Below are positions 7,670 to 31,519 of a stretch of DNA of 32,000 nucleotides, one piece after another. Source of the stretch: Pirellula staleyi DSM 6068. GTDB taxonomy: Bacteria; Planctomycetota; Planctomycetia; Pirellulales; Pirellulaceae. The notes under the pieces were generated by a model. The model saw only the letters and a list, made by a program, of their open reading frames with translations, had not been told where the DNA came from and ran no database searches. The position numbers were made by a program, and so were the translations under genes. The stretch spans positions 2,640,001-2,672,000 of the forward strand of contig CP001848.1 in the NCBI GenBank assembly GCA_000025185.1. Reading direction: 5' to 3'. Numbering within the stretch: the stretch's first letter is position 1; the number at the start of each line of letters is the position of its first letter.

Positions 7670-7838
7670 CTGTTTTGTGAGGTGCCTGGCAAACTCCCCA
7701 AACGGAGTTGCTGGCGTCTGATGGAGGCTCGTAGCTGCCGGATAGTAAAAGTCGAACGAGCGACTTAAGTCTAGCGAGAGCAACTACTTACCACTCGATC
7801 GAGCACCCCTGGGAGTGCTGATCTTGATCACCATCGAG

Positions 7839-7922
7839 TGCGGGCAAGAGGACTTGAACCTCCACGACCTTTCGGCCACAAGAACCTGAATCTTGCGCGT
7901 CTGCCAATTCCGCCATGCCCGC
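7839..7922 (-). tRNA. tRNA-Leu (anticodon CAG), class II with long variable arm
   Basis: I folded the 84-nt cloverleaf by hand. Acceptor stem GCGGGCA/TGCCCGC. Anticodon stem CAAGA/TCTTG with loop TTCAGGT. Variable arm GGCC-GAAA-GGTC. T arm GGAGG-TTCAAGT-CCTCT. Discriminator A. CCA is not encoded. Confidence 0.93.
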
Positions 7923-14700: not shown

Positions 14701-15619
14701 TGGTCGTAAACCCGGTGAAAACGTAGGAATTCCCCTGCTTTTTCCAGAGTCCGAGGGTCACCCCCGAAAGCCCTTGTTCACCGGCGTCTTGCGTCAGGTC
14801 GAGATCGTTATCGAGATAAACGCGGCCACCAATCGAGATCGGCAGCGGCTGTTGCTGCAGCGGCAGCATGGTGCCGGTCGAGCGGTCGCGTTTGCCGTCG
14901 AAGTTGTCAAACGGCAGGCCACTCGGGTTGCTGTCGGTGCGGAGCAGGGTCGTGCCGGCGAACAGCGGATCGTAGTTGTTGCGGAACTCGCTCGTGCCGG
15001 TCACTTCGTAGTAGTGCGGCGCTACGAACGTGGCGGTGAGCATCGAGCCTTGGAATTCGACACCCGAAGTGATCGGGTCGACACCTTCGTTGATGAGATC
15101 CTGGTTGGTGATCGAGGGGTCGTAGTCTTGCACTTCGTCGACATCGATCGAGAAGACGAGTTTCTCGCCAACGTCGAAGCCTTTGAAGTTCAGGATGAGC
15201 TTGGTGCCACCATCGGCGACGCTCCAGGTCACTTCCTGGATGCCACTGGACGAAACGATCTGCATGGGGAAGGCTTCGTCGGCTCCCCAGCCCCCTTTGA
15301 TGGTGTCGAAGAAGAGATCGCCGACGCTCCAGCCGGTGGGGCCGTGGTCGGTGTCGATGATCAGCTGCGTGAGCTGCGTGCCAGGTGCACCCCCTTCGAA
15401 TTTGATTTCGAAGGTGTCGCCGTGAAGATCGCTACCGCTATCTTCCTCGATGTAGACCATACCGACCTTCAGCGGATCGGCGTCCATCAGGCGGCGCGAC
15501 TCGACCTGTTCGAAGCGGCTTTGGCGACTCTTTTTCGCACGCTTGCGTTTGATCGGTGCAGGCGCGCTCGTGGTAACGGGGGACTTACGAAAAAAGTTCA
15601 GCAGGCTCCACAATCCCAC
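11786..15619 (-). CDS. Giant secreted protein: five SdrD-B/Cna-B-like domains plus C-terminal FG-GAP/VCBS repeats
   Basis: 1277 aa. The leader reads MGLWSLLNFFRK...KRKRAKKSRQSRFEQVESRRLM. It has repeats of SG.V..D...G..D.GE..L.GV.I.L.....TD.NG.Y.F..L.PGTY...E..P.GY. The FG-GAP-like units are AGDWNGDGRSELGVF, TGDWDGDGKDDIGIF, TGDWNGDGIASIGVF, VGDFNGDGIDDLGVF and AGDFNGDGIDEVAVY. Confidence 0.9.
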   Translation of the reverse strand: MGLWSLLNFFRKSPVTTSAPAPIKRKRAKKSRQSRFEQVESRRLMDADPLKVGMVYIEEDSGSDLHGDTFEIKFEGGAPGTQLTQLIIDTDHGPTGWSVGDLFFDTIKGGWGADEAFPMQIVSSSGIQEVTWSVADGGTKLILNFKGFDVGEKLVFSIDVDEVQDYDPSITNQDLINEGVDPITSGVEFQGSMLTATFVAPHYYEVTGTSEFRNNYDPLFAGTTLLRTDSNPSGLPFDNFDGKRDRSTGTMLPLQQQPLPISIGGRVYLDNDLDLTQDAGEQGLSGVTLGLWKKQGNSYVFTGFTTTTNSLGDYEFGTNLGLTPGTYQVRETQPTGYFSVGSIVGKVGGNTVGSTVAGDKDILTEITIPLGDMHGVRYDFAEALAAAVSGYVYVDADNDGVFDPGETPLAGVQIQVIPVNTISPQSVITLVTDANGFYEATGLAPGTYRIIQPTQPTGYFDGLDTPGTVNGVQVGTVNNPGDSLEMIVLGGGATGIRYNFGELEPASISGNVHLTNKDGDCYYEGWENNPVVGAVILLKDASGTVIAQTVTDANGNYKFDKLPPGTYTIVEQTPVGLIDGGDHIGKVGGVLNGTKSANDTISNIVLGPGANGVSYDFCEKLPASVSGKVWVDTTPNCTYDAGEALLAGVTIRLYDSAGNLVATTQTNALGEYIFAGLNPGTYTIRETQPLAYFDGCEQAGSEGGDDSQDDVISQINLGSGVVAVNYDFSEIPPAAISGYVFQDGAPIVTPNGQVPDNVEDYRDGLLTPDDIRIGGVLLELRHTLTGELVTAEDALPGMYPPGAIRVWTDANGFYQFRGLKAGNYSVFQAQPEGYIDSKDTAGTTSGLAVNRNTLVSPLLVQRFATQGVSFRFDAILQIPLAAGQESQLNNFSEVKITTYVIPPDPPKELDPPPEDPEFIPPVQLEIPPPLAPILIKPQDVITGGGGIFTWHLSIIDAGLPRTNGRATRMADVVYRSVLFVDKTDWQSERLRDGIWTIHTGDDSAQSPHFAFGIPGALPVAGDWNGDGRSELGVFYKGEWFLDLNGNGKWDEGDLWAKLGDANDQPVTGDWDGDGKDDIGIFGPEWPGDERHIENEPGLPDPDNAPKAMPRAKNLPPDYDEATDGERLLRLTARGKERADLIDHVFQFGNSVDVAITGDWNGDGIASIGVFRDGKWHLDMDGDGRWSEGDKVAHFGQKGDRPVVGDFNGDGIDDLGVFRGGKFYLDTNSNRQIDDGDDVIELGEMGDKPVAGDFNGDGIDEVAVYRDQPGTTPVGDSQ

Positions 15620-15734: not shown

Positions 15735-16814
15735 CTATTTGCGTAGCGGCTCGATGACATCGGGTCGGCGGCCGAGCTGGCCCCCATTGCCGTCGCCACG
15801 CGCCACGTTGTCGGTGATGGTCCAGATGCGAATCGTTGTGTCGTAGCCCGCCGAGACGAGCGTGTTGCCGATGCAATCGAGGGCCGCCACGCTGCCGGTA
15901 TGTCCGGTCAAAATGCCGGTCTCGACCTGGGTTTCGACATCCCACAAGCGGATGAGGTTGTCGCTGCCAGCGGTGGCCAAATGCGTCGGGCTATAGAACG
16001 TGATGGCGAGCACTTTGGCGGGGCGACGGGGCAAAAGAAACGGAGCCGCGCCACCCAGTGGCGAAATGTGAACCAGGCGATCTTCGCCAGCCGACGCGAG
16101 GTACGCACCATCGGGCGAGAAGACCATCGCGCGGACCCGCTGACGATGCGCGGGCATGTCGCTTGGTGGAGCATCGCTCGACACGCTGCTGACACGCACC
16201 ACGCCGCTGCGACCGGCAATCGCCAAGTTTTGATCGTCGGGCGAAAAGGCGACCGAGCGATGGTCGTCGCAAGGTCCCGCGATTTCTTTCACCAACTTGC
16301 CGGTGGCGACGTCAAACAGGCGGATCGTTTGTTCGAAACCGGCAGCGGCGAGCAGCTTCCCATCGTGGCTAAAGCGAATTGAAGTGACAGCCTGAGGCAG
16401 CTTGGCAAATTCGGATTTGAACTCCCCTGTCTCGGCATTCCAGAGCAAGATTTGACGATCGTTGCCGGCGGAGGCAAGCAGGGTGCCGTCGGGCGAATAG
16501 TCGATGGTGCGGACCCAGTCGATATGTTTGTCGAGCCGCTGGATCATCTTTCCATCGGCGAGTCCCCACACACGGACAATGTGATCGTCGCCAGCGGTGG
16601 CGAGCATTTGTGTTTGGCGATGGAGTCGCACGGCGGTGACCACCGGCGCTTTTTTGTTGTTCCGTTCGTCGATTTCGGGGGGCAGCTGAATGGTCCGCGA
16701 GGGCCAGTTCACAGCAGCCACTTCGTTGGCGGAGAGGAGGGGGCGACCGGCGACAAAGGCTGCCGCCAAGGTTCCCGCGCCAACCAAAAACTCGCGACGG
16801 TTTGGATTGTTCAT
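15735..16814 (-). CDS. WD40-repeat beta-propeller protein with twin-arginine (Tat) signal peptide
   Basis: From ATG 16814 the product reads MNNPNRREFLVGAGTLAAAFVAG. About seven WD-like units follow, for example LATAGDDHIVRVWGL, LASAGNDRQILLWN, LATAGSDNLIRLWDV and LVSAGYDTTIRIWTI. Confidence 0.88.
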   Translation of the reverse strand: MNNPNRREFLVGAGTLAAAFVAGRPLLSANEVAAVNWPSRTIQLPPEIDERNNKKAPVVTAVRLHRQTQMLATAGDDHIVRVWGLADGKMIQRLDKHIDWVRTIDYSPDGTLLASAGNDRQILLWNAETGEFKSEFAKLPQAVTSIRFSHDGKLLAAAGFEQTIRLFDVATGKLVKEIAGPCDDHRSVAFSPDDQNLAIAGRSGVVRVSSVSSDAPPSDMPAHRQRVRAMVFSPDGAYLASAGEDRLVHISPLGGAAPFLLPRRPAKVLAITFYSPTHLATAGSDNLIRLWDVETQVETGILTGHTGSVAALDCIGNTLVSAGYDTTIRIWTITDNVARGDGNGGQLGRRPDVIEPLRK

Positions 16815-17147
16815 GCCAAGCACACCGAGCGGAGGAAAGGGAGCGAACGCTAGCACTGAGAAGCGATCGCACGTGTGCGCTAGGGACACACGCAACGTCA
16901 TGTATCGGCGGCAAGAGGTGGAGCCATACAGTCGAAAAAGAGTCTCTAAGGCGTGTTCATACGCCCTATCGCGTCACTGCTGGCAAGGAAATCGCAACGC
17001 ATCAATAGCGATGCGTTTAACGGATAACCGTCTGCAAAAGATGGGCAGACTAGAGAGAGTTTCTGCATCGCTGCGAGCGCGCTGCTGTCGGCTGCGCCTG
17101 ACTGGCAGCGCGAGGCTCGATGTAACGACCAAAAGTGCCGCAGCCTG

Positions 17148-18938
17148 TTATTCGATGACTGCTGGCAGTGCTATCAGGTCGTCGGACTTGGGAATGTAGT
17201 AGGGCAAGTCGAGCGAGGCGATGCGGTAGGCCAGGTTGTCGAGCATGCTCTTGCGGAGCGTGGCGTCGTTCACTTCTTCGGAGAAGCTGCGCGAACTGGT
17301 GACATGCATCACCTCGCGATAGAGAGGCTGATTCACCCCCGCCGCCAGAAACTCCACCACCACTTCACCTTCCGCTTCCACGGCGGTGCGGCCGGTGTTG
17401 ACGCCGAAGAAATCGAACCGCGATTGCCGCTCGAAAATCGGCAGACGATCGCCGGCTCGTTCCGCCAGCCGAATACGAAACGCAGTTTGCTGCCCCCCTT
17501 CGAGTTTCATCTTGAACTGGGCCAGCCGCCGGTTGATTGCCTCTTGCACCTTGGTTTGTGCTTCCCCCGCATCGCCACGGAGACCAGCGAACTCGACAAT
17601 CAGGCTGGTCGAGGTGTTGGGGGCGATGTAGGCATCGGAGTCGTTCTTCATGGCGGCGAGTGTGCGATAGAGCAGCTCCCACGGAATTCGGACCGTTTCG
17701 ACAGCGGATTCTCCCTTACCAAACTTGCCGATCCAGCGGTTTTCGTCGAGAGGCTGTAGCGCCAGATCGCTACCGATGCCGCGACGAACGCTCAGCAGCG
17801 TCAGTTTCGACTGCCGCTCGACCATGCAGCCGTTGATCAGCCAACCCATGTTGCCGGGAAGCCAGAGGATGGTTTCGCGAAGTCCGTGGCGGGGGACTGA
17901 TGTCAGGATTGCATCGGCGGTGATCTTTCCTTTTTCATCCCACACCAAGAGCCGCGGCTCGGGATAGGTGGTGAACCCGGCCAGCTCTTTGCCATCGGGA
18001 GAGAAGGCGAGGGTTTCGAGTCCACCGAACGTGAAGCGGTTGTTGAGCTTCGCCTGGATGTTGTTTTGGAGGGCGCTCAGCGGAACAGGTCGCTTGGAAG
18101 CGGCGGCGACAGCGGCGACCACCGGCGACTGCATGCTGGCAACAATCTTGCTGGTGGCGGTGTTGCAGACCACCACCCCTTCATCGCCAATGGCGGCAAA
18201 GTAGCGGCCGTCGGGAGAGAAGAAGAGCTTTCGGTCGTCCCATTTGTTTTGGTAGGGGAGGGGCAATTCCTTGGCGACTTTGCCCGCCTCGCAGTCCCAC
18301 ACTTCCGCCGCGAAGGAATCGCGCGTGGCGAGAATCAGGTACTTATCGCGCGAGAAGGTGAGGGTGGTGAGCGAACTGGCCGACGACGGGAGCGGAATGC
18401 GAACTGCCAGTTTGCCGGTGGCGGTGTTCCAGACCAGCAGCTTGTAGCCACCTGCTGAATACTCCGCTTCGGCGACAAAGTAGGTGCCGAGCTGGCTCAA
18501 AATGCGAGCCGACGAGCCATGCTGCTGATAGTCGTCGTCGAGCTGCGAAATCTCGTTGCCGGTCTCGACGTTGTAGACCCGCTTACCAACCACCGCCACC
18601 TTGCAGCCGACCTGGCCCAGTGTCACCACTTCGCCCGCAGGAACCTGAATGCGAATATCCCCCTCGCTGTTGGCAGTCACTTTGGGGGCGTTGTCGGGCT
18701 TGGTTTTGAACGGATCGAAGTCGGGGAGCTGCGGCGCTGCTGGCTGCTGCTGTCCCGGTGCTGTTGGGGCAGGCGTGGATTGGGCCGCCACGCTCGAGAC
18801 AAGTGCCACCAGCGCGACCAGTGCAAGCGATCGAGTTACAAGCGATCGAGTTACAAGCGATCGGAGCAGAGCGGCGGCGCAGCGCTCGGAAGCCTGGTTT
18901 CGAGCAAGCGAATCGACATGCGAGGATCGAAGGGACAT
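17148..18938 (-). CDS. Secreted beta-propeller-like (WD40/PD40-like) protein, hypothetical
   Basis: 596 aa with signal peptide ...RSLALVALVALVSSVAAQS. It has repeated blade-like strings (LLVWNTATGK, AEVWDCEAGK, LFFSPDGRYFAAIGDEG, LAFSPDGKELAGF, LLVWDEKGK). The C-terminal ~180 aa are unassigned. Confidence 0.8.
   Translation of the reverse strand: MSLRSSHVDSLARNQASERCAAALLRSLVTRSLVTRSLALVALVALVSSVAAQSTPAPTAPGQQQPAAPQLPDFDPFKTKPDNAPKVTANSEGDIRIQVPAGEVVTLGQVGCKVAVVGKRVYNVETGNEISQLDDDYQQHGSSARILSQLGTYFVAEAEYSAGGYKLLVWNTATGKLAVRIPLPSSASSLTTLTFSRDKYLILATRDSFAAEVWDCEAGKVAKELPLPYQNKWDDRKLFFSPDGRYFAAIGDEGVVVCNTATSKIVASMQSPVVAAVAAASKRPVPLSALQNNIQAKLNNRFTFGGLETLAFSPDGKELAGFTTYPEPRLLVWDEKGKITADAILTSVPRHGLRETILWLPGNMGWLINGCMVERQSKLTLLSVRRGIGSDLALQPLDENRWIGKFGKGESAVETVRIPWELLYRTLAAMKNDSDAYIAPNTSTSLIVEFAGLRGDAGEAQTKVQEAINRRLAQFKMKLEGGQQTAFRIRLAERAGDRLPIFERQSRFDFFGVNTGRTAVEAEGEVVVEFLAAGVNQPLYREVMHVTSSRSFSEEVNDATLRKSMLDNLAYRIASLDLPYYIPKSDDLIALPAVIE
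18824..18863 (-). repeat. 15-bp in-frame tandem repeat (2.7 copies) inside the signal-peptide coding region
   Basis: The plus strand reads CAAGCGATCGAGTTA CAAGCGATCGAGTTA CAAGCGATCG. It encodes RSLVT-RSLVT-RSL. Confidence 0.85.
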
Positions 18939-19205
18939 AAGCTGCGTACTCCCACTCTCTGGCCGCCGGATGGCTGATCACTGCGTATGCTCGGTTGTAA
19001 TCTCCCCCACCCAGGCGATGCAAACGAAGCTTCGAAAAATTGATCTTGCAACGATTGCAAATTCTTTGTTACGGTCCGCACCCCCTAGAAAAAGTGGACA
19101 TCCAGCGCTGTTGTGGCGCGCTCGAGCGCGGGAAATGCTCGACGGCGCTCACGCTGCGCCAGGAGCCTGCCCCATGGCAGCTCGGCCACATTTGGCTTTG
19201 GGAAA

Positions 19206-20498
19206 ATGGCGGAACAACGGTCTACCCCAACACGCTTCGGAACCAACACCGGCATGCGCTGGGTCTACGTCTTTATCGTGCTCATCGTCTCAGCATCCTC
19301 GGCGGCTGCGCAAGGAGAACCTGCGCCCGCACCGGGCTATGGCACTCCCAGCTATCCACCGCAGGACTTTGCTTCCGCGGGCTATACCACCCCGAACTAC
19401 TCGCCTCCGAACTATCAGCAGTACGGCCCATATGCCACTGCGCCGCAGCCCGCTTACAGTCCCCCGCCGAGCTACGCCCCGGCGAACAGCATGCCAGCGA
19501 GTTACGGTGCTCCTGCGCCGTACGGTGCCCCAAGCTATGGCGCGCCGAACTACAGCAGCGCGCCGACTTATCCGGCCAGCTACCCACCTCCGACCGGCGC
19601 AGCGTATGGTCCCACGATGCAAGCGCCGCAAAACGGACAGCCGCCGGCGTACATGACGAGCGGTGGAGCAGGGGAGGTGCAGCGGATGCCCGACATCAGC
19701 ACCGAAGTGACGCAGGAAGAAATCTTCACGCCACCACCCGCAGCAGCAGCTCCCGACGGAGCGGCGCCTGACGGAGCAGCCGATTCGGCCGTGGAGTTTG
19801 AAATGGGTGAGCCCGATCCGACAAGCTGGTGGAGTCACAGCTACTGGGATCCCTGGGAAGGGAGCGTTGAACTGGGGCTCAGCGGCACCGAAGGGAACAG
19901 CGAAACGTTTAACGTTCGCGCAGGTCTCAAGGCCAAACACTCCACCGAGTTCCTCGAGCGAACTCTCGAAATCACGAGCATTCAAAAATCGGCCAATGGT
20001 GTTACCACGGCCAACACGGCCCTCATAGATGGTCGCGTGGTTTGGCCTCTGCCGCAGTCACGCTTCAACTATTTCATCCACGGACTGGTGGAGTACGACG
20101 AGTTCAAAGCGTTTGATTGCCGCGTCTCGGCCGACACCGGTCTCGGGTACGAATGGATTCAAAACGACTTAACGAAGCTGATGTCGCGAGCCGGTATCTC
20201 GGCTTCGCAAGAGATTGGTGGACCGAACGATTCGCTCAACCCCGAACTTTTGCTCGGTGGCGAGTATGAGCACAAATTCAACGATTCGCACAAAGTTTCG
20301 GCAAAGGTCGACTTCTATCCCACGATCGATGACTTCAGCGATTTTCGTCTGAACAGTCAGGCGGCGTGGGAGATCGCACTTTCGTCGGATTGGGGGCTCA
20401 GTTTGAAGCTGAGCGTGATTGATCGCTACGACAGTACACCGAGTGGTGCGAAGGCGAACGACCTCGACTACTCGACGCTGCTGATCTGGTCGTTCTAG
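19206..20498 (+). CDS. DUF481 (YdiY-like) outer-membrane beta-barrel with N-terminal Tyr/Pro-rich low-complexity region
   Basis: The track ORF starts at 19113; the ATG candidates are 19206 and 19254. The signal peptide is MRWVYVFIVLIVSASSAAAQ. The barrel part reads WEGSVELGLSGTEGNSETFNVRAGLKAKH... and ends in the aromatic terminus LLIWSF. Confidence 0.85.
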   Translation: MAEQRSTPTRFGTNTGMRWVYVFIVLIVSASSAAAQGEPAPAPGYGTPSYPPQDFASAGYTTPNYSPPNYQQYGPYATAPQPAYSPPPSYAPANSMPASYGAPAPYGAPSYGAPNYSSAPTYPASYPPPTGAAYGPTMQAPQNGQPPAYMTSGGAGEVQRMPDISTEVTQEEIFTPPPAAAAPDGAAPDGAADSAVEFEMGEPDPTSWWSHSYWDPWEGSVELGLSGTEGNSETFNVRAGLKAKHSTEFLERTLEITSIQKSANGVTTANTALIDGRVVWPLPQSRFNYFIHGLVEYDEFKAFDCRVSADTGLGYEWIQNDLTKLMSRAGISASQEIGGPNDSLNPELLLGGEYEHKFNDSHKVSAKVDFYPTIDDFSDFRLNSQAAWEIALSSDWGLSLKLSVIDRYDSTPSGAKANDLDYSTLLIWSF

Positions 20499-20611
20499 TC
20501 GCACGCTTTTTGTTCCTGCAGATCATTCACTACTCCCAGCCTGATACACGCAGCCCCCATACATACTGCTTAGTACACGCACAAAATCGACCCTCGCCCG
20601 GAGGACAATTC

Positions 20612-21955
20612 ATGCTTCGAAGACTCACAATCCCCCTGCTCGCCTTGCTGGTGTCGCAAGCACTCGCTTTGGCGGCTGTTGCGCAAACCGGGGGGCAGAT
20701 GCGGCGCAGCAGCGGCGCGTACACCGCTCCCGCCTCGTCCGAGAGCACCGTCAGCTACGACGATGTTCCGGTTGAAGGCGAAATGACCAGCAGCGACTGG
20801 GCAGGGAGCTGCAGCGACGGGACTTGCGGTCCTGAGTGTGGCATTTGCCGACCTCTCGGTGGCAGCTGGGCCCGGCTCGAAATGCTCCTTTGGACCACGC
20901 GCGGCATGAACGTGCCAGCGCTTGTCACCACCAGCAACACCGGCACGGCGCGCAACATTGCTGGCGTTCTGGGGGAAGGCTCGACACGCGTCCTCTACGG
21001 CGACGACACCGTCAACAGCTACACGCGCATCGGCGGCCGGTTCACCGGTGGTGTCTGGCTCGACGAGTGCCGCCGACTCGGTATCGAAGGTGACTACTTC
21101 GGCCTCGAGAACGAAACCGAGAACTACAGCCAAAACACCGCTGGCAACGCGATCCTCGCGCGTCCGTTCTACGACATCGTCAACGGCCAAGAGACTGCGC
21201 AGCTGGTCTCGTTTCCGAACGTGATTTCAGGCTCGGTGAATGTCGACGCTGTCACTAAGTTTCAAGGCTCGGGCATTCGCTTCATCAACAACTTGTGCGG
21301 CGCTCAAGGGTGCTGTCCTTCGATTCTGAACAACTGCAACACCGTCCCCACCAGCTACCAGGTGCAGATGCTCCTCGGCTATCGCTACCTGCGACTCGAC
21401 GACTCGCTCGAGATCACCGAGGATCTGACGTCGCTCGATACCGCCGCACCGGGCTCGTTCTTTGTGCGCGATATGTTCGAAACCGACAACCAGTTCCACG
21501 GCGGCGATATCGGATTTGTCTACTCGACGCGGCGCGGCTGTTGGTCGCTCGATATCCTTTCGAAAGTGGCGATCGGCAGCACCTACAGCCGCATTTCGAT
21601 CGACGGCAACACCCTCATCACCGAAGGGAACCAAACCACTAACAACACCGGTGGTTTGCTCGCTCAGCGAACGAACATTGGCGACTACACCGCCAACGAG
21701 TTCGCGATGGTCCCCGAACTGGGGCTCACGCTCGGCTATCAGCTGAATCCTTGCTGGCGGTTCACGATGGGCTACACGCTTCTGTACTGGAGCCGCGTGG
21801 CTCGCGCTGGGGATCAGATCGATACCGATATCAATCCCAACTTGATTCCGCCAGAAGATCCAGCGGTCACCACCCATCTGCGCCCCGAGTTCAATCTGGC
21901 CTACACCGATTTCTGGGGAACCGGGCTTAACTTGGGTCTCGAAGCGACCTGGTAG
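20612..21955 (+). CDS. BBP7-family putative outer-membrane beta-barrel protein
   Basis: ATG 20612 is preceded by GGAGG. The signal peptide is MLRRLTIPLLALLVSQALALAAVAQ. LEMLLWTTRGMNVPALVTTS is a BBP7-type start. The rest shows an alternating beta-strand pattern and ends LNLGLEATW. Confidence 0.82.
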   Translation: MLRRLTIPLLALLVSQALALAAVAQTGGQMRRSSGAYTAPASSESTVSYDDVPVEGEMTSSDWAGSCSDGTCGPECGICRPLGGSWARLEMLLWTTRGMNVPALVTTSNTGTARNIAGVLGEGSTRVLYGDDTVNSYTRIGGRFTGGVWLDECRRLGIEGDYFGLENETENYSQNTAGNAILARPFYDIVNGQETAQLVSFPNVISGSVNVDAVTKFQGSGIRFINNLCGAQGCCPSILNNCNTVPTSYQVQMLLGYRYLRLDDSLEITEDLTSLDTAAPGSFFVRDMFETDNQFHGGDIGFVYSTRRGCWSLDILSKVAIGSTYSRISIDGNTLITEGNQTTNNTGGLLAQRTNIGDYTANEFAMVPELGLTLGYQLNPCWRFTMGYTLLYWSRVARAGDQIDTDINPNLIPPEDPAVTTHLRPEFNLAYTDFWGTGLNLGLEATW

Positions 21956-21987
21956 TCCGCGGTACTCTTAGTACCTGAGCGCAAAAA

Positions 21988-22022
21988 AGAAAGCTGCGAT
22001 GAGCGTCACTCGTCGCAGCTTT
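21988..22022. terminator. Bidirectional intrinsic terminator between convergent genes
   Basis: GAAAGCTGCGATGAG-CGTCA-CTCGTCGCAGCTTTC forms a 15-bp stem with one G-U pair. It is flanked by AAAAAA upstream and TTCGTTTCTT downstream. Confidence 0.75.
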
Positions 22023-22060
22023 CTTCGTTTCTTGTAGCTAAAAAATCGTCGGCGCGTGGC

Positions 22061-23233
22061 TTACTCGTCGCGGCCGATGCGCGAGCGTTTACGCGACGAA
22101 CGTCGTGTACCCTTCACGCCCCGCTTCTTCTTCCGCTTGATCGAATCGCCGGAGCTCGAGGGTTTCTTCACCTCTTGAATCAGCAGCGAATGCCAGCCGG
22201 TGGCGTAGGTCTCAAAGCCGGGCGAGAGAGCATGCGCGACGCAGCAATTGCGGCTTCCGACATTCGTCACGACAAAATCTTTGGCCTTCGCAAACAGCTG
22301 ACCACGTTCCGAAAAATCGATCGTATCGCCGAGAATTCGGTTCCGCGAATCGGCAAGCACCGTTCCACCATCGTCGACAATGCACACCCGCGTGCGGCTC
22401 TTTTCTTCAGCCGTCAGCGAGACGCCGTTGACGATCGTTTGCGCGAGCCCTTCCCAGTTGAACACAACACCCAGCACGCCAATCGGCTTGCCATTCACGT
22501 CGCCACCTTCGCGCACGCAGCACGAATAGACCACCGTGTATTTGTCGTTCACCAGCGGACTGCGGTGCACACTCTCAAAACCAAACTCTTTGCCGCTGCG
22601 AGTCCGCAGGGCACTCTGAAACCAAATGGCGTGCGAATGTTCGGTTCCCATCGAACGGTAGAGATCGGGGCGGCCATTGGCCACAATCTTGCCGGAGAGA
22701 TCGCACAGCACGAGATCGAAATAAACGGTGTACGAATCGAGGATCACGCCGAGTCGTTTCGAAGCATGATCGAAAGCGGCTGGACTTCGCTCGGTCAGCG
22801 CGGTGACGAGGCTGGCATCGGTCGCCCACCAGCGAACATCGCACGAACGCTCGTAGAGGTTGCGATCGATCAGGTCGATGTTCATCAGCGCGATGTCGGA
22901 GAGTCGTGTGCCGTTGAACTCTGTGCCCATCCGCGTGCTGACGTTGCCGATGCGGGTCAGGGTCCGTCCGCTACGACGCTTCAGGTTCGAAACCACTTTG
23001 GCACTGGTGTTCGAGAGGCCGGCGATTTCCATCGCCACGATGTTGAACGCTTTGCCCGCTTCACCTGCCCGGGCAGCTTCGATCCGTGCATTGAGGGCCA
23101 GCACGCGAATCTGATCGTTCACGTTATCAATGGCGGCAATGGTGCGATCCATGACCGTGTCGAGCTCACGCGTGAGGTCGGCAACAGCTTCAGGGTTGAA
23201 CTTCTTTTGAGCGTCAGCCGTGGCAGCGGTCAT
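22061..23233 (-). CDS. Soluble MCP-like protein: minimal N-terminal signalling-hairpin tip plus C-terminal putative sensor domain and basic tail
   Basis: IRVLALNARIEAARAGEAGKAFNIVAMEIAGLS, at about aa 42-74, is the conserved MCP tip. There is no TM segment or HAMP domain. GGAAG lies 8 nt upstream of ATG 23233. Confidence 0.85.
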   Translation of the reverse strand: MTAATADAQKKFNPEAVADLTRELDTVMDRTIAAIDNVNDQIRVLALNARIEAARAGEAGKAFNIVAMEIAGLSNTSAKVVSNLKRRSGRTLTRIGNVSTRMGTEFNGTRLSDIALMNIDLIDRNLYERSCDVRWWATDASLVTALTERSPAAFDHASKRLGVILDSYTVYFDLVLCDLSGKIVANGRPDLYRSMGTEHSHAIWFQSALRTRSGKEFGFESVHRSPLVNDKYTVVYSCCVREGGDVNGKPIGVLGVVFNWEGLAQTIVNGVSLTAEEKSRTRVCIVDDGGTVLADSRNRILGDTIDFSERGQLFAKAKDFVVTNVGSRNCCVAHALSPGFETYATGWHSLLIQEVKKPSSSGDSIKRKKKRGVKGTRRSSRKRSRIGRDE

Positions 23234-23551
23234 AACGGCAGCTTCCTATCGAAAATCGGTTGCGAATGACCCACATCGAAGTGGGTGGTACGAGTAACGA
23301 ATCCCCCGCATGGCGGCAACGGACGCCACACACGCAAGTCAGGCAACCGTAGCTTGCAAAAAGTGCGCAAGGGTTGTCGAAGCAGATCTGAGCCGAGAAT
23401 TTTCGGACTTTCTCAGCTTTTACACGTTCTTCACAAACGGCGACCTGGCCTGTCGTGGTCGGTAAAGCAGGGGGGCGACCTCATCCACTAGCGGTGGCAT
23501 CCAGAACTTCTATCCGGTTTCTGAGGCCGACCTCCACTTTGTTGACGAATT

Positions 23552-23580
23552 GCAACTTGCCACCCCGCTGGCGTGGTCTA
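23552..23580 (+). promoter_or_regulatory. Shared cis-element, copy upstream of cheA
   Basis: TTGACGAAT-N8-GCCAC-CCC-GCTGGCGTG-G-TCTA. It is collinear with the copy at 27510..27544. Confidence 0.4.
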
Positions 23581-23849
23581 AGTTTTCGAAGCTTCGGGCC
23601 CGGAAGCGTTGCTGCGCACTCTCCCGCACACTTGCCGGACCCCAGCCTGCGGATTGACTCAGGGGCAAATCGCTTGCCATTAGAGGCTGCGAAAGCGGGC
23701 CCTATCGCCACCCGGTGCGGCCCCCTGAGACCACTGACTCGTAAGGGTAGAGGACGAGAAAAAAGAGTGCAAAACGACTGTAAAAACGACCAAAACGTCC
23801 GTTTGTCAGCCGTCACTGCCAGCGATGATTTTGTAGCCAGGAACCTGCC

Positions 23850-26615
23850 ATGAATGATGCTGACCAGCAGATTGTGAACGACTTTGTGATTGAAGCGAGC
23901 GAGCACCTCGCGGATATCGAGAACCAGCTCCTTTCGATCGAAGCGAGCGCCGATAGTCCCAACGTCGAACTCGTTCACGAGGTCTTCCGGAACGTCCATT
24001 CGGTGAAAGGGGTTGCAGGGTTTCTCGGGTTTGCATCGGTAGGATCGCTGGCGCATAGCCTCGAAAGTGTCCTCAACATGGTCCGAGGGGGCGAGCTGCG
24101 CCCGCAAGGTGTCGTCATCGAAACGCTCCTCTCGGGGTTCGATACGCTGCGACAAATGGTCCACCATATCGACCGGGTCGACGACTTTGATGTCACCGGG
24201 CATGTCAACCAGCTGCAGGAAATCATGAACGTCGCCAAGATCGCCCCATCCGCTGGCGAACTTGCCGCCGCAGGCACTTCAGGCGGTTCCGCTGCGAGTC
24301 AGCATCCGCTCGATCTGGCGCAGCAGTTCGTGACCGATTCGGGACTGCAGGCCGATCCCAACGCGATCCTCGCCAGTTTGCGAGAGCAAATGGAGCCGGC
24401 CGCAGCACCGAAAGCGAACGCACAAAGTAGTCAGCAGCCCAAGATCGCATCTGAACCGGCCCCTACCAGCGACGCCGCGATCAACAGCAAGATTAGTGCA
24501 GCTAACGGTGCCGCTGCCGAGTCGACACCGAGCAAAGGGAGTGCGGCCGACGCCAATATTCGCGTTCCGGTGGCGATTCTCGATCGGCTGATGAATCTCG
24601 CCGGCGAACTGGTACTCGGTCGCAATCAGCTGTTGCAGATCTTGCAGAACAAATCGGGCGCGGGGCTCGACACCGTCGGCGCGCGGCTCGATCAAGTCAC
24701 CACCGAGCTGCAAGAGGCGATCATGAACGCCCGCATGCAGCAGGTAGGGACCGTTTTCAATCGCTTCCCCCGCATGGTCCGCGATGTGAGCCAAAAGCTC
24801 GGCAAACAGTGCCGCTTACAACTCGAGGGGAGCGAAGTCGAGCTCGATAAAACGATCCTCGAAAACATTTGCGATCCTCTCACGCACCTCATTCGCAACG
24901 CCATCGATCACGGCATCGAGCGCCCTGAAGTTCGTGCTCGTGAGGGAAAATCAGAAGCTGGCACCCTCACGATCCGCGCGTTTCACCAGGCAGGCAAAGT
25001 CCATATCACGGTGAGTGACGACGGTGGTGGCATTCACCCGCAAAACCTGCGCGATAAAGGTGTCCGCAAGGGTTGGTTTAGCGCCGAGCATGCCGCTTCG
25101 CTCTCCGATCGCGAAGCGCTCCGGCTGATCTTCCGCCCTGGTTTTTCAACAGCCGAAGTGGTCACCGAAGTGAGTGGCCGCGGCGTTGGCATGGATGTTG
25201 TCAAAACCAATATCGAAAAACTAGGGGGGACGGTAGAAGTCGACAGTACACCTGGCGCGGGGACGACCGTGCATGTGAAACTTCCCCTCACACTGGCCAT
25301 CATTCCGTCGCTGATCGTTGGCAGCTGTGGCGAGCGTTATGCCATTCCCGAAAGCTCGATCATCGAGCTCGTCCGCTTCACGCCGGGCGATAAGAGCATG
25401 CGTGTCGAACGTTTCCAGGGTGCCGAAGCGCTCCGGCTGCGGGGAACACTCTTGCCACTCGTTCGTTTGAGCTCGCTCCTATCGACCAGCTCGAAGAAAA
25501 CGCCGATTGCGACCGATACTTCGCGGGCTCACAACATCATTGTGGTCGAAGGGGGAGTCGTTCGTTATGGGATTGTGGTCGATGCGGTCCTCGACCCCGA
25601 GCAGATCGTCGTGAAACCACTGGGGCGGCACATCAAGAGCTGCCGCTGTCTGGCTGGTGCGACGGTGCTCGGCGATGGACAAGTCGCCTTTATTCTCGAT
25701 ATTCCTGGGATCGCAGCGCATGCGTCGCTCGTTGCCGGGGAATCGCTCGAGGCCGAAAATCGCCGCTTTGCCACACAAGACACTGCCGAAGAAACGCAAA
25801 CCATTTTGCTCTTCCAAGGGCTGCGCGGCGATCTGTTTGCCGCCCCCATGGCGATGGTCTCGCGCATTGAAAAGATTGGCCGCGAGCAGGTCGATCGCGT
25901 CGAGTCGCGACTCTTGCTGCAATACCGTGGCGGCACACTCCCACTGGTTCAGCTCGAACCAGGGACCCAGCGCGAGGAGCTTCCCGAATCGGTCTACGTT
26001 CTCGTCTTCCAAGTGAAGGGTTACGAGATGGGACTGATCGTGCCACTGATCGTCGACATCTGCGATGCCTCGACGGCGGTCGACACGCGAGTCTATCGCG
26101 AGAAGGGAACGATGGGGGTGCTGGTGATCGAGGGACGCGTGGTTCGTTTGCTCGATGTGCATGAACTAGCAGCGAGCATGGCTCCGCCGCAGGCCGACAA
26201 TCCACGTCTGCAAAATTCGCCGCTGCAGGGGCGTCGGCTTACCGTGTTGATGGCCGAAGATTCCCCATTTTTCCGCGAGCAGATCGGCAAATTCCTCACC
26301 GAAGAGGGACACACCGTGATTGCCTGCGAAGATGGTTTGGAAGCGTGGGAAACGTTGCAGCAACCCTCGCTGCAAATCGACCTGGTGGTGACCGATGTCG
26401 AAATGCCGCGCATGAATGGTTTTGAGTTCTGCCGCAAGATTCGCTCGTCGGCGGCGCATCGGCATCTCCCTGTGATCGCCCTCACTTCGCTGAACGAAGC
26501 CAAGCATGTTCGCATGGGAGCAGAGGCGGGGGTGAGCGACTATCAAGTGAAGATGGATCGCGACAAACTGCTCGCCGCGATCACCAAGTTCATGGCCCAA
26601 ATGAAATCGACGTAA
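23850..26615 (+). CDS. cheA: Chemotaxis histidine kinase CheA fused to a CheY-like receiver, with two CheW-like (P5) domains
   Basis: The Hpt region reads FRNVHSVKGVAGFLGF and the dimerisation region IRVPVAILDRLMNLAGELVLGRNQL. The HATPase region reads DPLTHLIRNAIDHGIE...GRGVGMDVVKTNIEKLGGTVEVDSTPGAGTTVHVKLPLTLAI. Two CheW-like blocks follow, then REC (VLMAEDSPFFRE...DLVVTDVEMPRMNGFEF...PVIALTS...K). Confidence 0.95.
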   Translation: MNDADQQIVNDFVIEASEHLADIENQLLSIEASADSPNVELVHEVFRNVHSVKGVAGFLGFASVGSLAHSLESVLNMVRGGELRPQGVVIETLLSGFDTLRQMVHHIDRVDDFDVTGHVNQLQEIMNVAKIAPSAGELAAAGTSGGSAASQHPLDLAQQFVTDSGLQADPNAILASLREQMEPAAAPKANAQSSQQPKIASEPAPTSDAAINSKISAANGAAAESTPSKGSAADANIRVPVAILDRLMNLAGELVLGRNQLLQILQNKSGAGLDTVGARLDQVTTELQEAIMNARMQQVGTVFNRFPRMVRDVSQKLGKQCRLQLEGSEVELDKTILENICDPLTHLIRNAIDHGIERPEVRAREGKSEAGTLTIRAFHQAGKVHITVSDDGGGIHPQNLRDKGVRKGWFSAEHAASLSDREALRLIFRPGFSTAEVVTEVSGRGVGMDVVKTNIEKLGGTVEVDSTPGAGTTVHVKLPLTLAIIPSLIVGSCGERYAIPESSIIELVRFTPGDKSMRVERFQGAEALRLRGTLLPLVRLSSLLSTSSKKTPIATDTSRAHNIIVVEGGVVRYGIVVDAVLDPEQIVVKPLGRHIKSCRCLAGATVLGDGQVAFILDIPGIAAHASLVAGESLEAENRRFATQDTAEETQTILLFQGLRGDLFAAPMAMVSRIEKIGREQVDRVESRLLLQYRGGTLPLVQLEPGTQREELPESVYVLVFQVKGYEMGLIVPLIVDICDASTAVDTRVYREKGTMGVLVIEGRVVRLLDVHELAASMAPPQADNPRLQNSPLQGRRLTVLMAEDSPFFREQIGKFLTEEGHTVIACEDGLEAWETLQQPSLQIDLVVTDVEMPRMNGFEFCRKIRSSAAHRHLPVIALTSLNEAKHVRMGAEAGVSDYQVKMDRDKLLAAITKFMAQMKST

Positions 26616-27544: not shown

Positions 27545-28204
27545 TCGCTTAGGTGAGCTATCTCGCTCGTAGCGCTTCTCCGGGGTGGGGAAGTGCCGGT
27601 GGTGACGATTATGTCATCCCACGCTCCGGAAGTAGATCGAAAAAATTTTCGAACTCCTGCTGAATTGCTCAAGCAGTTCGTTTGACACCTGAGGAAACCG
27701 ACCTAGGTTTTCGTTGTACGGATGAGCGGAGTGAATCGGCTCTTCGTGCATGAAATGAGAGTGCCTGGGGAGGCGTGTTCGCTGCGGTATTTCCGCTGTG
27801 AAATGCGTCTCACTTGGTGCTTCTGATTTCGGGCGGCCTGCCGCCTCACATCCTCGATAAGGGCAAACCGGTAGAGATGCCGGGGCGCAAAGCAAAGGGC
27901 CTTTGGCCCGCTGGGATCACGCAAGTGAACTGGTGGGCCGATGGTAGCCTGGCTGCCGAAAGGGTGTCGACGAGTTGGAACTACATCGCACAGCGATGTG
28001 CCTCCAGTTACGAGACGACCTGACAGGCGAGATAACGAGAACGAGGCGAGCTTCGTCTGTTGTTTTGGATTCCGGTGAGCTGGTTTGGCAGGCCGGAGCG
28101 GGCCATGTTTGGCACGCTTACTACCAGCTACAGGGGTCCAGTGTGTTCTGTCGTGTCGGGTGCTTAGCGACTACGTTCGCAGCACGTAACTGAGGAGGAA
28201 GCCA

Positions 28205-28393
28205 ATGAAGAATCTCGCTCTGAAAGTGCAACGTTTCCTGGTCTCGGAAGATGGTCCAACTGCAGTGGAATACGCTGTGATGTTGGCGCTCATCGTGATC
28301 GTGTGCCTCACGGCCATTCAGGCCATCGGCACCAACGCCAACGCGACGTTCAACAGCGTCGCCACCAAGCTCTCGAGCGGTGGCGGTTCGTAA
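28205..28393 (+). CDS. flp: Flp-family type IVb pilin (copy 1)
   Basis: 62 aa with the processing motif G/PTAVEYAVMLALIVIV. The RBS GAGGAGG lies 6 nt upstream. Confidence 0.93.
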   Translation: MKNLALKVQRFLVSEDGPTAVEYAVMLALIVIVCLTAIQAIGTNANATFNSVATKLSSGGGS

Positions 28394-28732: not shown

Positions 28733-28921
28733 ATGACTGCCATTGCCAGCAAAATCGGTCGTTTTCTGAAGAGTGAAGATGGTCCAACCGCCGTGGAATA
28801 CGCTGTGATGCTCGCGCTCATCGTGATCGTGTGTCTCACCGCCATCCAAGCGATCGGCACCAACGCCAACGCCACGTTCAACAGCGTTGCGACCAAGCTC
28901 TCGAGTGGCGGCGGTTCGTAA
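28733..28921 (+). CDS. flp: Flp-family type IVb pilin (copy 2)
   Basis: 62 aa. The product is identical to copy 1 from residue 14 onward, and the leader differs. Confidence 0.93.
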   Translation: MTAIASKIGRFLKSEDGPTAVEYAVMLALIVIVCLTAIQAIGTNANATFNSVATKLSSGGGS

Positions 28922-29222: not shown

Positions 29223-29792
29223 ATGCTCGATGCGATTTACGCAGTGGGTTCGGCCATGGCCGAACATTGGACCGTTTGGCTGGTGACCATTGTTTTGATC
29301 CTGGCTGCGGTGATCGACGGTTTTGAATTGAAGGTGCCCAACTGGATCACCTTTCCATTCATCATCAGCGGCTGGATCTACAGCGTGGCTGCGTTCGGCT
29401 GGGAAGGGCTCGGCTGGAGCCTCGTCGGAACGGTGGTTGGTTTGGCGCTGCTGCTTCCCGCCTATTCGATCGGCGGCATGGGAGCAGGGGACGTGAAACT
29501 GCTAGCAGGTGTCGGAGCCTGGATGTATGGAACGCACACGTTCTATGCCTTCTGTGCCTCGGCGGTGGTGGGAGCCCTCTGTGCTGTCATCATGGTGCTG
29601 GCAAAACGAGCCTGGAAGAAACACTCGGATCAGTTCTGGCTGATCCTCAATGAGATCATGGTGATTGGAAATCCTGAGAAGCTGGCAGTGATTGCAGCGA
29701 AGCGTAAGCCTTCGATGCTGCTGCTCCCTTATGGAATTCCAATCGCAATCGGCACGATTGGCTACTTTTTGGTCCGAGGCATGTTGGTGTAA
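29223..29792 (+). CDS. cpaA: Prepilin peptidase CpaA/TadV (A24 aspartic peptidase)
   Basis: Polytopic membrane protein. The first catalytic Asp context is AAVIDGFELKVPN and the second is GGMGAGDVKLLAGVGAW. Confidence 0.92.
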   Translation: MLDAIYAVGSAMAEHWTVWLVTIVLILAAVIDGFELKVPNWITFPFIISGWIYSVAAFGWEGLGWSLVGTVVGLALLLPAYSIGGMGAGDVKLLAGVGAWMYGTHTFYAFCASAVVGALCAVIMVLAKRAWKKHSDQFWLILNEIMVIGNPEKLAVIAAKRKPSMLLLPYGIPIAIGTIGYFLVRGMLV

Positions 29793-29835
29793 GAGCCACC
29801 TGCCGTAGACCGGGTAATCTGGGAGGGGTTTGTCG

Positions 29836-30306
29836 ATGGCAACGATGAGGCAGCCCGAGCAGAGTTTGCAGGTCCAGTTACCGAAACTGGATAAACCTTA
29901 CCGGTCGTACCGAAGAAATCGTCGGGCGGCGGCCACAGTCGAGTTTGCTGTGGTCGCACCGATCTTCTTTCTTCTCGTCCTCGGCATGATCGAGTACGGG
30001 CGGATGGTGATGGTCCAACAGGTCATCACCAACGCTTCGCGAGAAGGGGCAAGGACGGCTGTGCTCGACGGGACGACGACGGCGGAAGTAACTGCCACAG
30101 TCAACTCCTACCTCGCTAGCGGTTCGATTTCAGGCGCGACTGTAGTGGTCACACCTAATCCTCCGACGAATGCCGATGGTGGGGATCCAGTGACTGTGAC
30201 GGTTTCTGTTCCTTTCAGTCAAGTCAGTTGGCTCCCGTCGCCAATGTACTTAGGAGGGAAGACTCTCTCGTCGACGACCGTAATGCGCCGCGAGTCGGTG
30301 CAGTAG
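29836..30306 (+). CDS. tadE: TadE-like pseudopilin
   Basis: RRAAATVEFAVVAPIFFLLVLGMIEYGR is the TadE N-terminal motif. ATG 29836 is preceded by GGGAGGGG. Confidence 0.88.
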   Translation: MATMRQPEQSLQVQLPKLDKPYRSYRRNRRAAATVEFAVVAPIFFLLVLGMIEYGRMVMVQQVITNASREGARTAVLDGTTTAEVTATVNSYLASGSISGATVVVTPNPPTNADGGDPVTVTVSVPFSQVSWLPSPMYLGGKTLSSTTVMRRESVQ

Positions 30307-30400
30307 CTAGCAACACCAGCGACTAGCTCTTTACGGCCGTCCAGATGGTTCAGCGTCTCATCATTTGTGTTTGCTGGCGGCAAGCGAAGGAAACCTCGCA

Positions 30401-31519
30401 ATGCGGATGAAGTCTCTAATCCTGATCTTCATTGCCCTAGGCTGCGGTCTGGTCGCTTCGATCGGCATCAGCCAGGTGATGGAGCGTGGTGGCAGCGGAG
30501 CTGCGCCAGCCATGGAGATGGAGCAGATCCTCGTTGCGCTCGCCGACATCGATATCGATGCCAAGCTGAACGCCGAGAATGTGCAACTCGAAGAGTGGCC
30601 CAAATCCAAGGTTCCCGAGGGGGCGGTTCGCTCGCTCGATGAAGTCGAGGCCAAATTCGCTCAGCAGCGATTCTTTAAAGGAGAGCCGATTCTCCTGGCC
30701 AAGATCAGCGACCAAAACGTCAACCCGATGATCCGCATCCCGGAAGGTTACCGGGTCATGCCGGTGAAAGTCGACGATGAAACGGTGCTGAAAGCCATTT
30801 CGCCCGGCGATCGCGTCGACGTGATGGTGTTCCTCCGCCGTAGCGAAGAAATCAAGCAGACCGCGACCTATACGATTCTGCGTAATGTCCGTGTGTTCGC
30901 TGTGAATTCCAATACCGAGCGCGATCTCGAGACCAAGGGGCAAGACGTCAATGCTCGCACCGTGTCGCTGATCATTAAGCCACAGCAGTCGCGAGAACTC
31001 GCGGTCGCTTCGCAGATTGGCAAGATCATCCTGACGATGCGTCGCCCCGATGAAACCGACGAAGCGGGCGAAGGTGAAGACGTAACTCCTATCACGGAAA
31101 TCCTTTCGGGCAAAGCATCGCTTGGCGATGAAGAGCAGCCCGCACCAGCGGCACCAGTCGCTGCTCCGGCACCGATCAACAGCTTTCTGACCGAAGTGAC
31201 CACGCCTGCTGCTCCAGCCCCCGCACCAGCGGCTGCTGTCCCAGCAAAGCCTGCCTTCACGATGCACATCTTTGGCCCTGCTGATGTGAAAGCCTACGAA
31301 TGGCAAGACACCAAGCAGCTCCCAATCGAAACGAGCCTGGGTGGCCAGCCCACACCTGTGGTCGAGCCTGCACCAGCCCCAGTGGCTCCGGCTGCTCAAC
31401 CAACGCCAGCTGCCGAGCCAACTTTGGAAGAACCAGTATCAGCCGAGCCAGTGACCGTGGAGCCTGTGACCGAAGAAGCAGGCACGTCTCCACCTGCGTA
31501 TGCACCACCTGTCGACTAA
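30401..31519 (+). CDS. cpaB: Flp pilus assembly protein CpaB/RcpC with long Pro/Ala-rich C-terminal extension
   Basis: MRMKSLILIFIALGCGLVASIG provides the N-terminal TM segment. The SAF-like region reads ILVALADIDIDAKLNAENVQLEEWP. The core reads GYRVMPVKVDD...GDRVDVMV...VRVFAV. Confidence 0.9.
   Translation: MRMKSLILIFIALGCGLVASIGISQVMERGGSGAAPAMEMEQILVALADIDIDAKLNAENVQLEEWPKSKVPEGAVRSLDEVEAKFAQQRFFKGEPILLAKISDQNVNPMIRIPEGYRVMPVKVDDETVLKAISPGDRVDVMVFLRRSEEIKQTATYTILRNVRVFAVNSNTERDLETKGQDVNARTVSLIIKPQQSRELAVASQIGKIILTMRRPDETDEAGEGEDVTPITEILSGKASLGDEEQPAPAAPVAAPAPINSFLTEVTTPAAPAPAPAAAVPAKPAFTMHIFGPADVKAYEWQDTKQLPIETSLGGQPTPVVEPAPAPVAPAAQPTPAAEPTLEEPVSAEPVTVEPVTEEAGTSPPAYAPPVD

Follow-up and report, generated by a model that had tools for sequence, protein, structure and literature searches.

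A putative soluble, methylation-independent mini-chemoreceptor with a C-terminal dCache sensor, encoded beside a CheA-REC hybrid kinase in Pirellula staleyi

Small soluble chemoreceptors whose sensor follows the signalling domain are represented by TlpD of Helicobacter pylori (433 aa) and McpA of Salmonella enterica (352 aa), both with a C-terminal CZB sensor; of the two, TlpD has been found to bind both CheW and CheV and to form a signalling complex (PMC13001251). Canonical transmembrane (TM) methyl-accepting chemotaxis proteins (MCPs) with a double-Cache (dCache) sensor are common and include PctA, PctB and PctC of Pseudomonas aeruginosa, CtaA of Pseudomonas fluorescens, Tlp3 of Campylobacter jejuni and Mlp37 of Vibrio cholerae. 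The signalling bundles of MCPs are catalogued in MiST3 in 12 heptad classes, ranging from 24H to 64H, with 24H as the shortest (PMC6943060). The gene described here, termed mini-MCP, was found in a stretch of 32,000 nucleotides of Pirellula staleyi DSM 6068 (GenBank assembly GCA_000025185.1, contig CP001848.1, positions 2,640,001 to 2,672,000), which is referred to below as the window. Its product carries an MCP tip at the N-terminus and a predicted dCache sensor at the C-terminus, and its neighbours encode a CheA-REC hybrid kinase and CheW. With a probability of roughly 0.7, mini-MCP is read as a soluble, cytoplasmic, methylation-independent mini-chemoreceptor, whose dimerisation, binding to CheW and CheA, control by a ligand and output we infer.

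Like TlpD and McpA, mini-MCP is small and cytoplasmic, is devoid of a TM segment and bears its sensor after the signalling domain. TlpD and McpA differ by a small, zinc-binding, helical CZB sensor and by a longer methyl-accepting (MA) domain with flanking helical regions, whereas the N-terminal arm (N-arm) of mini-MCP comprises only ~44 residues. The canonical dCache-MCPs share both the dCache and the MCP tip with mini-MCP, which, in contrast to them, lacks TM helices and HAMP as well as the methylation helices and the flexible bundle, and has its sensor in the cytoplasm. As sensor-last soluble receptors (TlpD and McpA with CZB) and dCache-MCPs were known already, mini-MCP is not categorically new. 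In the literature, the coverage of which is incomplete, no description was found of a bundle half as long as the shortest catalogued class that lacks a methylation region and is fused by an N-terminal helix to a cytoplasmic dCache.

The tip sequence IRVLALNARIEAARAGEAGKAFNIVAMEIAGLS occupies aa 42-74 of mini-MCP. The Pfam model MCPsignal (PF00015) matches aa 29-83 with 49.6 bits (cutoff 34.6); the match spans just positions 36-90 of the 172 profile positions, and the receptor models of NCBIfam likewise align to the protein by their tip regions only. A profile of the family, covering aa ~15-115, matches both arms of solved receptor hairpins with E values of 1e-11 to 5e-16, which is far above chance. 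The best PDB sequence matches are the Thermotoga maritima Tm14 fragments 4jpb_B and 3ur1_C (E ~5e-16); others are 2ch7 (residues 111-215) and Tsr (357-428). The secondary structure assignment (DSSP) left the helix unbroken at the tip in both models and could not alone reveal a hairpin, so aa 1-140 were modelled alone and searched against the folds of the PDB with Foldseek. This partial model superposes on the Tsr tip 6s1k_E of the Escherichia coli core signalling unit over 98 columns, with a root-mean-square deviation of 2.5 Å, a target-normalised TM-score (TMt) of 0.77 and a sequence identity of 32%, and the next matches are the cytoplasmic domains of Tsr, Tm14 and TM1143. On the strength of the superposition, aa 14-104 are a genuine MCP tip hairpin. 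The N-arm begins at the conserved pair P14-E15, of which E15 is nearly invariant in the family alignment, and the residues without variation in the family, N48, R55, G57, G60, F63 and A67, are those typical of the MCP tip, the conserved pattern of which comprises N, E and R-A-G-E-x-G-x-x-F. E58, at the U-turn, is the equivalent of Tsr E391, in agreement with the offset of the profile alignment.

Together the N-arm and the C-terminal arm (C-arm) of the hairpin amount to ~13 heptads, a count derived from model and alignment, and the bundle length falls outside all 12 described classes. Receptors of class 24H resemble mini-MCP in their short bundle and conserved tip, but have 24 heptads. On the Tsr scale, the receptor surface in contact with CheW and CheA-P5 is located below about residues 357-413 (PMC13098124); this range maps to aa ~24-80 of mini-MCP, so that the entire contact surface is kept. 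Tm14 (TM1143) and its derivative Tm14s (PDB 3UR1, 4JPB), which supply the best sequence matches in the PDB, offer a comparison in size: as a receptor hairpin of just 85-90 residues, Tm14s sufficed to give crystals of a ternary complex with CheA P4-P5 and CheW (PMC13098124). Tm14s is a laboratory truncation without a sensor, whereas mini-MCP is a natural truncation fused to one. The initial annotation of this DNA had recognised an unmistakable MCP tip at the extreme N-terminus and a bundle far shorter than the shortest class; both statements hold, and profile alignment reveals no signalling domain of normal length. Its estimate of ~40 helical residues on either side of the tip needs correction on the C-terminal side, where ~79 residues follow (aa 59-137). 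Only the first ~45 of these pair with the N-arm, and the remainder is the stalk helix of the dCache.

No TM segment is present in mini-MCP, the highest mean Kyte-Doolittle value over 19 residues being 1.39 in the whole protein. Pfam detects neither a HAMP nor a CZB domain in it, no signal peptide is visible in its sequence and no C-terminal pentapeptide was found. The methylation consensus [ASTG][ASTG]xx[EQ][EQ]xx[ASTG][ASTG] does not occur in aa 1-137, nor does any adjacent E/Q pair, and a match to the consensus is present in only one of 36 family members. Hydropathy, domain and motif scans are thus in line with the earlier view that TM segments and HAMP are lacking and that the protein has no room for methylation helices. 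Family members are annotated in databases as "methyl-accepting chemotaxis protein", which is probably a misnomer for this family.

The full-length AlphaFold2 model has a mean predicted local distance difference test (pLDDT) value of 85.7 and has a single unbroken helix (aa 14-137) ahead of an alpha/beta region (aa 140-355, pLDDT > 90), while aa 1-10 and 359-390 at the ends are disordered. A Foldseek search of the PDB with the sensor returns DctB first (E 9e-12), followed by PctA, PctB, PctC, CtaA, Tlp3, Mlp37 and KinD; these matches range in E value from 9e-12 to 1e-7, cover 255-280 columns at TMt 0.6-0.75 and include the stalk helix in the alignment. For the canonical dCache-MCPs listed above, the values are E 1e-9 to 1e-7 and TMt ~0.7. 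Residues ~105-355 are accordingly modelled as a dCache fold, and the initial guess of a Cache- or PAS-like alpha/beta sensor can be sharpened to dCache. The precomputed Pfam assignments list PF02743 (dCache_1) for nearly all homologues, and the model scores above its cutoff in tandem relatives (78-94 bits). No similarity at the level of sequence connects the sensor to the solved ligand-binding domains of the canonical receptors. The location is also atypical: 78% of Cache domains are predicted to be extracellular (Upadhyay et al. 2016, PMC4822843), and the dCache of mini-MCP departs from the usual extracytoplasmic site between two TM helices in that no hydrophobic segment is present. For an extracellular Cache, the route of transmission is the transmembrane helix at its C-terminus (Upadhyay et al. 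2016, PMC4822843); in mini-MCP, unlike these receptors, the route out of the dCache must be the stalk helix at its N-terminus.

Conservation within the protein is highest in the stalk region itself, aa 108-139 (GTRLSDxALxNIDLIDRNLYERSCDVRWWATD), with a conservation index of 0.94 versus 0.78 for the tip, which fits a role as transmission element. The positions conserved even in distant relatives are R124, R129, R134, W135, W136, R160, Y168, Y171, W204, R241, R282 and W347, and this set, rich in arginine and aromatic residues, hints at an anionic ligand. W204-F205 stand at the usual place of the RxWY motif, the arginine of which is absent. A metal or haem site formed by Cys131 and His348 was considered and rejected: both residues are invariant in close homologues, but not once the longer-bundle relatives P0228 and P0257 are added, position 131 being alanine in these two proteins as well as in each half of the tandem fusion P0121. 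The C-terminal tail is basic (aa 356-390) and restricted to the Pirellulaceae subgroup, the same subgroup in which CheA-REC and CheW accompany mini-MCP. The point where the tail leaves the fold is close to the acidic N-arm. Localisation, an intramolecular contact, or binding to the membrane or a polyanion are possible roles.

The reading frame is intact. An in-frame stop lies only 5 codons 5' of the ATG, so that no extension of the gene is possible without a frameshift. The spacer to the divergent cheA gene is 616 bp long and contains no MCP-like reading frame, and the sole long open reading frame (ORF) upstream, 23481..24203 (-), has no Pfam match. Homologues from hundreds of genomes are 330-390 aa in length. 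The short, tip-first protein of the initial annotation is therefore confirmed by an intact ORF and equally long homologues, and the upstream stop and the lengths of the homologues speak against an upstream frameshift or a longer true gene.

A word-indexed search yielded 4590 proteins at E <= 0.001, a count that includes ordinary MCPs matching by the tip only; the best 120 of these 4590 are 328-474 aa long and nearly all show MCPsignal followed by dCache_1. In an exhaustive search of representatives at 50% identity, 176 clusters were found at E <= 1e-30, almost all of 330-390 aa, and a scan of one genome per species found the family in at least 593 species. These belong to the Planctomycetota (Pirellulales, Gemmatales and the anammox organisms Kuenenia, Scalindua and Brocadiaceae), Verrucomicrobiota, Armatimonadota, Acidobacteriota, Xanthomonadales, Nitrosomonas and Thaumarchaeota (Nitrososphaera, Nitrosotenuis and Nitrosotalea). 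Archaeal and bacterial members share > 50% identity, a value which implies horizontal spread together with strong constraint. Natural fusions of two tip-dCache units in tandem (P0121, P0219, P0247 and P0249, 680-734 aa) fit a dimer as the working unit. Two adjoining mini-MCP paralogues also occur in an armatimonadete locus (L065, 7254..9624). The relatives P0228 and P0257 (453-477 aa) have a longer bundle, with an MCPsignal match in P0228 that covers profile positions 2-150, and keep the C-terminal dCache and the motif RNLYERxxDVRWWATD. Their existence suggests that the mini form arose by shortening of a sensor-last soluble receptor, and the longer-bundle type may be the ancestral state.

In the window, the hybrid kinase CheA-REC is transcribed divergently from mini-MCP and is followed by the gene for CheW. 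No P2 domain was detected in the kinase by Pfam, and no CheR, CheB or separate CheY was found anywhere in the 32 kb. A CheA with two CheW domains and a C-terminal REC is typical of class F5, and REC-bearing CheAs are also found in classes F3, ACF and Tfp (PMC10542144). The divergent trio of mini-MCP, CheA-REC and CheW is present in all eight orthologous loci of the Pirellulaceae type (L001-L005, L081 from Anatilimnocola aggregata, L086 and L087), and in the window as in these eight loci mini-MCP is the sole MCP-like gene beside the other two.

Linkage of the family to che genes is strong, with core che genes found within flanks of 8-10 kb in 32 of 87 related loci. In Nitrososphaera evergladensis, mini-MCP is the first gene of an operon that continues with an ORF of 71 aa and cheW-cheY-cheB-cheA-cheC-cheD-cheR; a gene for a full-length dCache-HAMP-MCP lies just upstream and archaellum genes lie alongside. 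In other Thaumarchaeota, too, it heads the che operon beside archaellum genes; the thaumarchaeal loci are L082, L007 and L017, and in L007 and L017 the mini gene is separated from cheW by an MCP-like gene. The order in nine loci of Verrucomicrobiota is cheW-cheA-mcp-cheB-cheR-mini-REC, with the mini gene right after cheR, and in several Pirellulales and in Kuenenia stuttgartiensis the mini gene abuts a cluster mcp-mcp-cheR-cheA-cheD-cheY. A single-domain REC (CheY-like) gene follows directly 3' of the mini gene in at least 13 loci of Planctomycetota, Verrucomicrobiota and anammox organisms (L001, L016, L030, L033, L042, L053-L056, L059, L066, L071 and L083); the window differs from these in having the REC fused to CheA instead. 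In the orphan loci of Xanthomonadales and Nitrosomonas, no partner recurs in the flanks, where most genes are of housekeeping type or lack annotation.

The proposed mechanism is as follows. Two chains would pair through their hairpins (aa 14-104) to give a four-helix bundle ~65 Å long, corresponding to only the protein-interaction region of an MCP, and this bundle would dock in the CheW and CheA-P5 grooves of the neighbouring CheW and of the CheA-CheW-REC hybrid kinase. In the model, the helix of the C-arm continues unbroken as the long stalk helix of the C-terminal dCache. An intracellular small molecule would bind to the dCache, the conserved arginine and aromatic residues suggesting an anionic metabolite, and would shift the stalk helix and its packing on the end of the bundle, whereby the activity of the kinase would be altered. 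The signal path would measure ~100 Å instead of ~300 Å and would involve neither a HAMP relay nor adaptation by CheR and CheB. The topology may be understood as a circular permutation of a dCache-MCP, in which the C-arm is fused with what is ordinarily the helix after TM1, the link from the proximal module via TM2 and HAMP to the N-arm is cut, and the membrane part, HAMP, the methylation bundle and the flexible bundle are deleted. The reversal of domain order noted initially would then apply to the order in the sequence and not to the arrangement in space, where, as in canonical dCache-MCPs, the sensor would probably sit on top of the bundle. In the three-gene che module of the window, mini-MCP is the only receptor gene; in other lineages, it forms part of full che operons.

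Several observations weigh against the mini-chemoreceptor reading. About 60% of the loci have no che gene in their flanks. An anammox paralogue, flanked by the gene for a GAF/PAS sensor protein of 982 aa on one side and by a stand-alone gene for REC on the other (L083, 7029..11493, from a Kuenenia metagenome-assembled genome, and L016 from Brocadiaceae), has neither CheA nor CheW in its vicinity. Many of the che operons that hold mini-MCP also encode CheR and CheB, despite the absent methylation motif; the full-length MCP in the same operons may explain their presence. With regard to the sensor, the dCache_1 match of mini-MCP itself (aa 137-306) reaches 27.4 bits and stays below the cutoff of 45, and with a threshold as loose as E <= 10 the family profile of the sensor part retrieved none of the solved Cache domains by sequence, so that no ligand motif is transferable from known dCaches. 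Two bulky dCaches at 65-120 Å from the tip may, moreover, clash in a trimer of dimers, in which case canonical arrays might not be formed and the higher-order assembly may be unusual.

The co-occurrence with full-length receptors bears on an alternative role as array accessory or regulator. A tip-only protein of this kind would take up CheW and CheA-P5 sites or insert among full-length MCPs, perturbing or capping signalling units in a ligand-dependent manner, and would feed a metabolic signal into arrays that other receptors build. The che clusters of Thaumarchaeota, Verrucomicrobiota and several Planctomycetota do hold a full-length MCP in addition to the mini protein, which has no methylation sites though CheR and CheB are encoded there, and competition at the receptor tip is known to arise when partners that bind CheW are in excess (PMC13098124). 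A precedent is CheWS of Treponema denticola, a CheW-CheR-like sensor of S-adenosylmethionine that is anchored to arrays by a Che domain (PMC10653840). CheWS resembles mini-MCP as a cytoplasmic metabolite sensor tied to the chemosensory machinery via a minimal Che module; unlike mini-MCP, it is anchored through a CheW domain and not a receptor tip, and its sensor fold is unrelated. An accessory role is nevertheless considered unlikely, if worth keeping in view, since a sole receptor fits better with the window and its eight orthologous loci, in which no other MCP-like gene accompanies CheA-REC and CheW. It is more improbable still that the MCP-like hairpin was co-opted as a plain dimerisation coiled coil, either with partners other than CheA and CheW (for example classical histidine kinases or REC proteins) or in a metabolite-binding protein. 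Such a role would suit the Kuenenia and Brocadiaceae paralogue between its GAF/PAS protein and REC, the orphan state of over half of the loci, and the peak of conservation in the stalk helix rather than in the tip; a mere coiled coil, however, has no need of the canonical CheW, CheA and trimer contact residues, which are invariant across phyla, and the linkage to several types of che cluster is strong and repeated. For the view that the gene is what truncation or a frameshift left of an MCP of normal length, or a sequencing artefact, the sole point in favour is the unusually short MCPsignal match, and the probability is close to nil in view of the upstream stop, the lack of an MCP-like frame upstream, the 176 clusters and at least 593 species with nearly uniform architecture, and the confident full-length model. 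Truncation as an artefact was thus excluded by the stop and by homologues of the same length.

The reading of mini-MCP as a mini-chemoreceptor can be extended to the family as a whole, in a form that is tentative and rather doubtful. The family would be an ancient, horizontally mobile, permuted and never-methylated receptor class of ~13 heptads, in which a tip driven by the stalk of a cytoplasmic dCache suffices for control of CheA. Through the nearly invariant stalk and pocket, rich in arginine and tryptophan, the class would respond to a single anionic metabolite of the cell interior, the same one throughout, and would report the metabolic state to the che pathways of ammonia-oxidising archaea, anammox organisms, Planctomycetota and Verrucomicrobiota. 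Candidates for the metabolite are a signal of carbon or nitrogen status such as a dicarboxylate, or a nucleotide second messenger. Around the anammox paralogue, four ammonium-transporter (amt) genes are present, three of them paired with a P-II (glnK-type) gene, which hints at a link of this paralogue to nitrogen status. The family is large, strongly conserved and mechanistically minimal. It appears as the lead gene of a thaumarchaeal che operon and is common in environmentally important, little-studied phyla; the identity of the ligand would reveal which internal state these organisms monitor. How signals are transferred through ~300 Å of HAMP, methylation and flexible bundle to CheA is still debated, and a natural receptor without those parts would provide a minimal soluble system of ~40 kDa suited to crystallography, cryo-electron microscopy, reconstitution and receptor engineering.

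Table 1. Features of the mini-MCP gene and its immediate neighbourhood in the window (columns: feature, position, strand, basis or remarks)
mini-MCP gene	22061..23233	-	390 aa, ATG start; coordinates include the stop codon; MCPsignal and weak dCache_1
N-arm, aa 14-57, ~6 heptads, acidic	23063..23194	-	both models start the helix at residue 14; alignment with the N-helices of Tsr and Tm14
Tip core, aa 42-74, U-turn at E58	23012..23110	-	Pfam, alignments, superposition on 6s1k_E
C-arm, aa 58-104, predicted to pair with the N-arm	22922..23062	-	profile alignment, model of aa 1-140, superposition
Junction and stalk helix, aa 105-139	22817..22921	-	model, conservation; extends the C-arm and equals the long N-terminal dCache helix
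Two PAS-like alpha/beta modules of the predicted dCache, aa 140-355	22169..22816	-	pLDDT > 90; Foldseek
Basic disordered tail, aa 356-390, 16 K/R in 35 residues	22064..22168	-	pLDDT < 50, alignment, composition
Putative bidirectional terminator hairpin, 17-bp stem	21987..22025	.	pattern scan; number of hits not above shuffle expectation, weak
Hybrid kinase CheA-REC (Hpt, dimerisation, HATPase, P5/CheW, second CheW-like, C-terminal REC)	23850..26615	+	Pfam
CheW coupling protein, 162 aa	26672..27160	+	Pfam CheW, 97.9 bits

The hairpin listed in Table 1 sits between the convergent ends of a porin gene (end at 21955) and of mini-MCP (end at 22061) and is possibly a bidirectional terminator. The three-gene che module of the window adjoins a flp/tad pilus locus. 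A tie between the mini-MCP architecture and tad loci, which the initial annotation had proposed to survey, turned out to be weak, sporadic and local at best: tad genes are near the mini-MCP gene in 3 of 88 loci (the window, L035 and L086), with the che triplet embedded inside the tad locus in L086, and none are near it in Anatilimnocola or in another orthologue of 79% identity. A c-di-GMP-I-GGC riboswitch (RF03167, 63.2 bits, cutoff 59) was identified at 27853..27961 (+), between cheW and the genes for the Flp pilins. The latter are two ORFs of 62 aa at 28205..28393 (+) and 28733..28921 (+), which differ only in the first ~12 residues and have identical translations from SEDGPTAVEYAVMLALIVIV on; in the window the riboswitch was detected before the first copy only. 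RF03167 occurs twice in the Lacipirellulaceae locus L035 (6658..6758 and 7607..7718), once for each of the two flp genes there, and expression of the Flp/Tad pilins in these planctomycetes is probably under the control of cyclic di-GMP (c-di-GMP), to judge from these motifs. The che module and a tad locus with a c-di-GMP riboswitch suggest a link from a cytoplasmic signal to surface attachment. The Flp pilins are followed by genes for a prepilin peptidase (29223..29792), TadE (29830..30306) and RcpC/CpaB (30365..31519).

At the other end of the window, a cobalamin riboswitch (RF00174, 63.9 bits) is located at 965..1097 (-); the gene that it controls would lie towards or beyond the start of the window. 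A tRNA gene was found at 7839..7922 (-) with an Rfam score of 51.8 bits. Genes of planctomycete surface or envelope type are present at 2302..3360 (-), 3580..6651 (-), 11786..15619 (-), 15735..18938 (-) and 19113..21955 (+). Among the envelope-type genes of the window are those for a DUF1559 protein with an N-methylation motif, a 1023-aa protein with DUF11 repeats, a 1277-aa protein with SdrD-B/SpaA repeats, two WD40 proteins, a DUF481 protein and a BBP7 beta-barrel porin.

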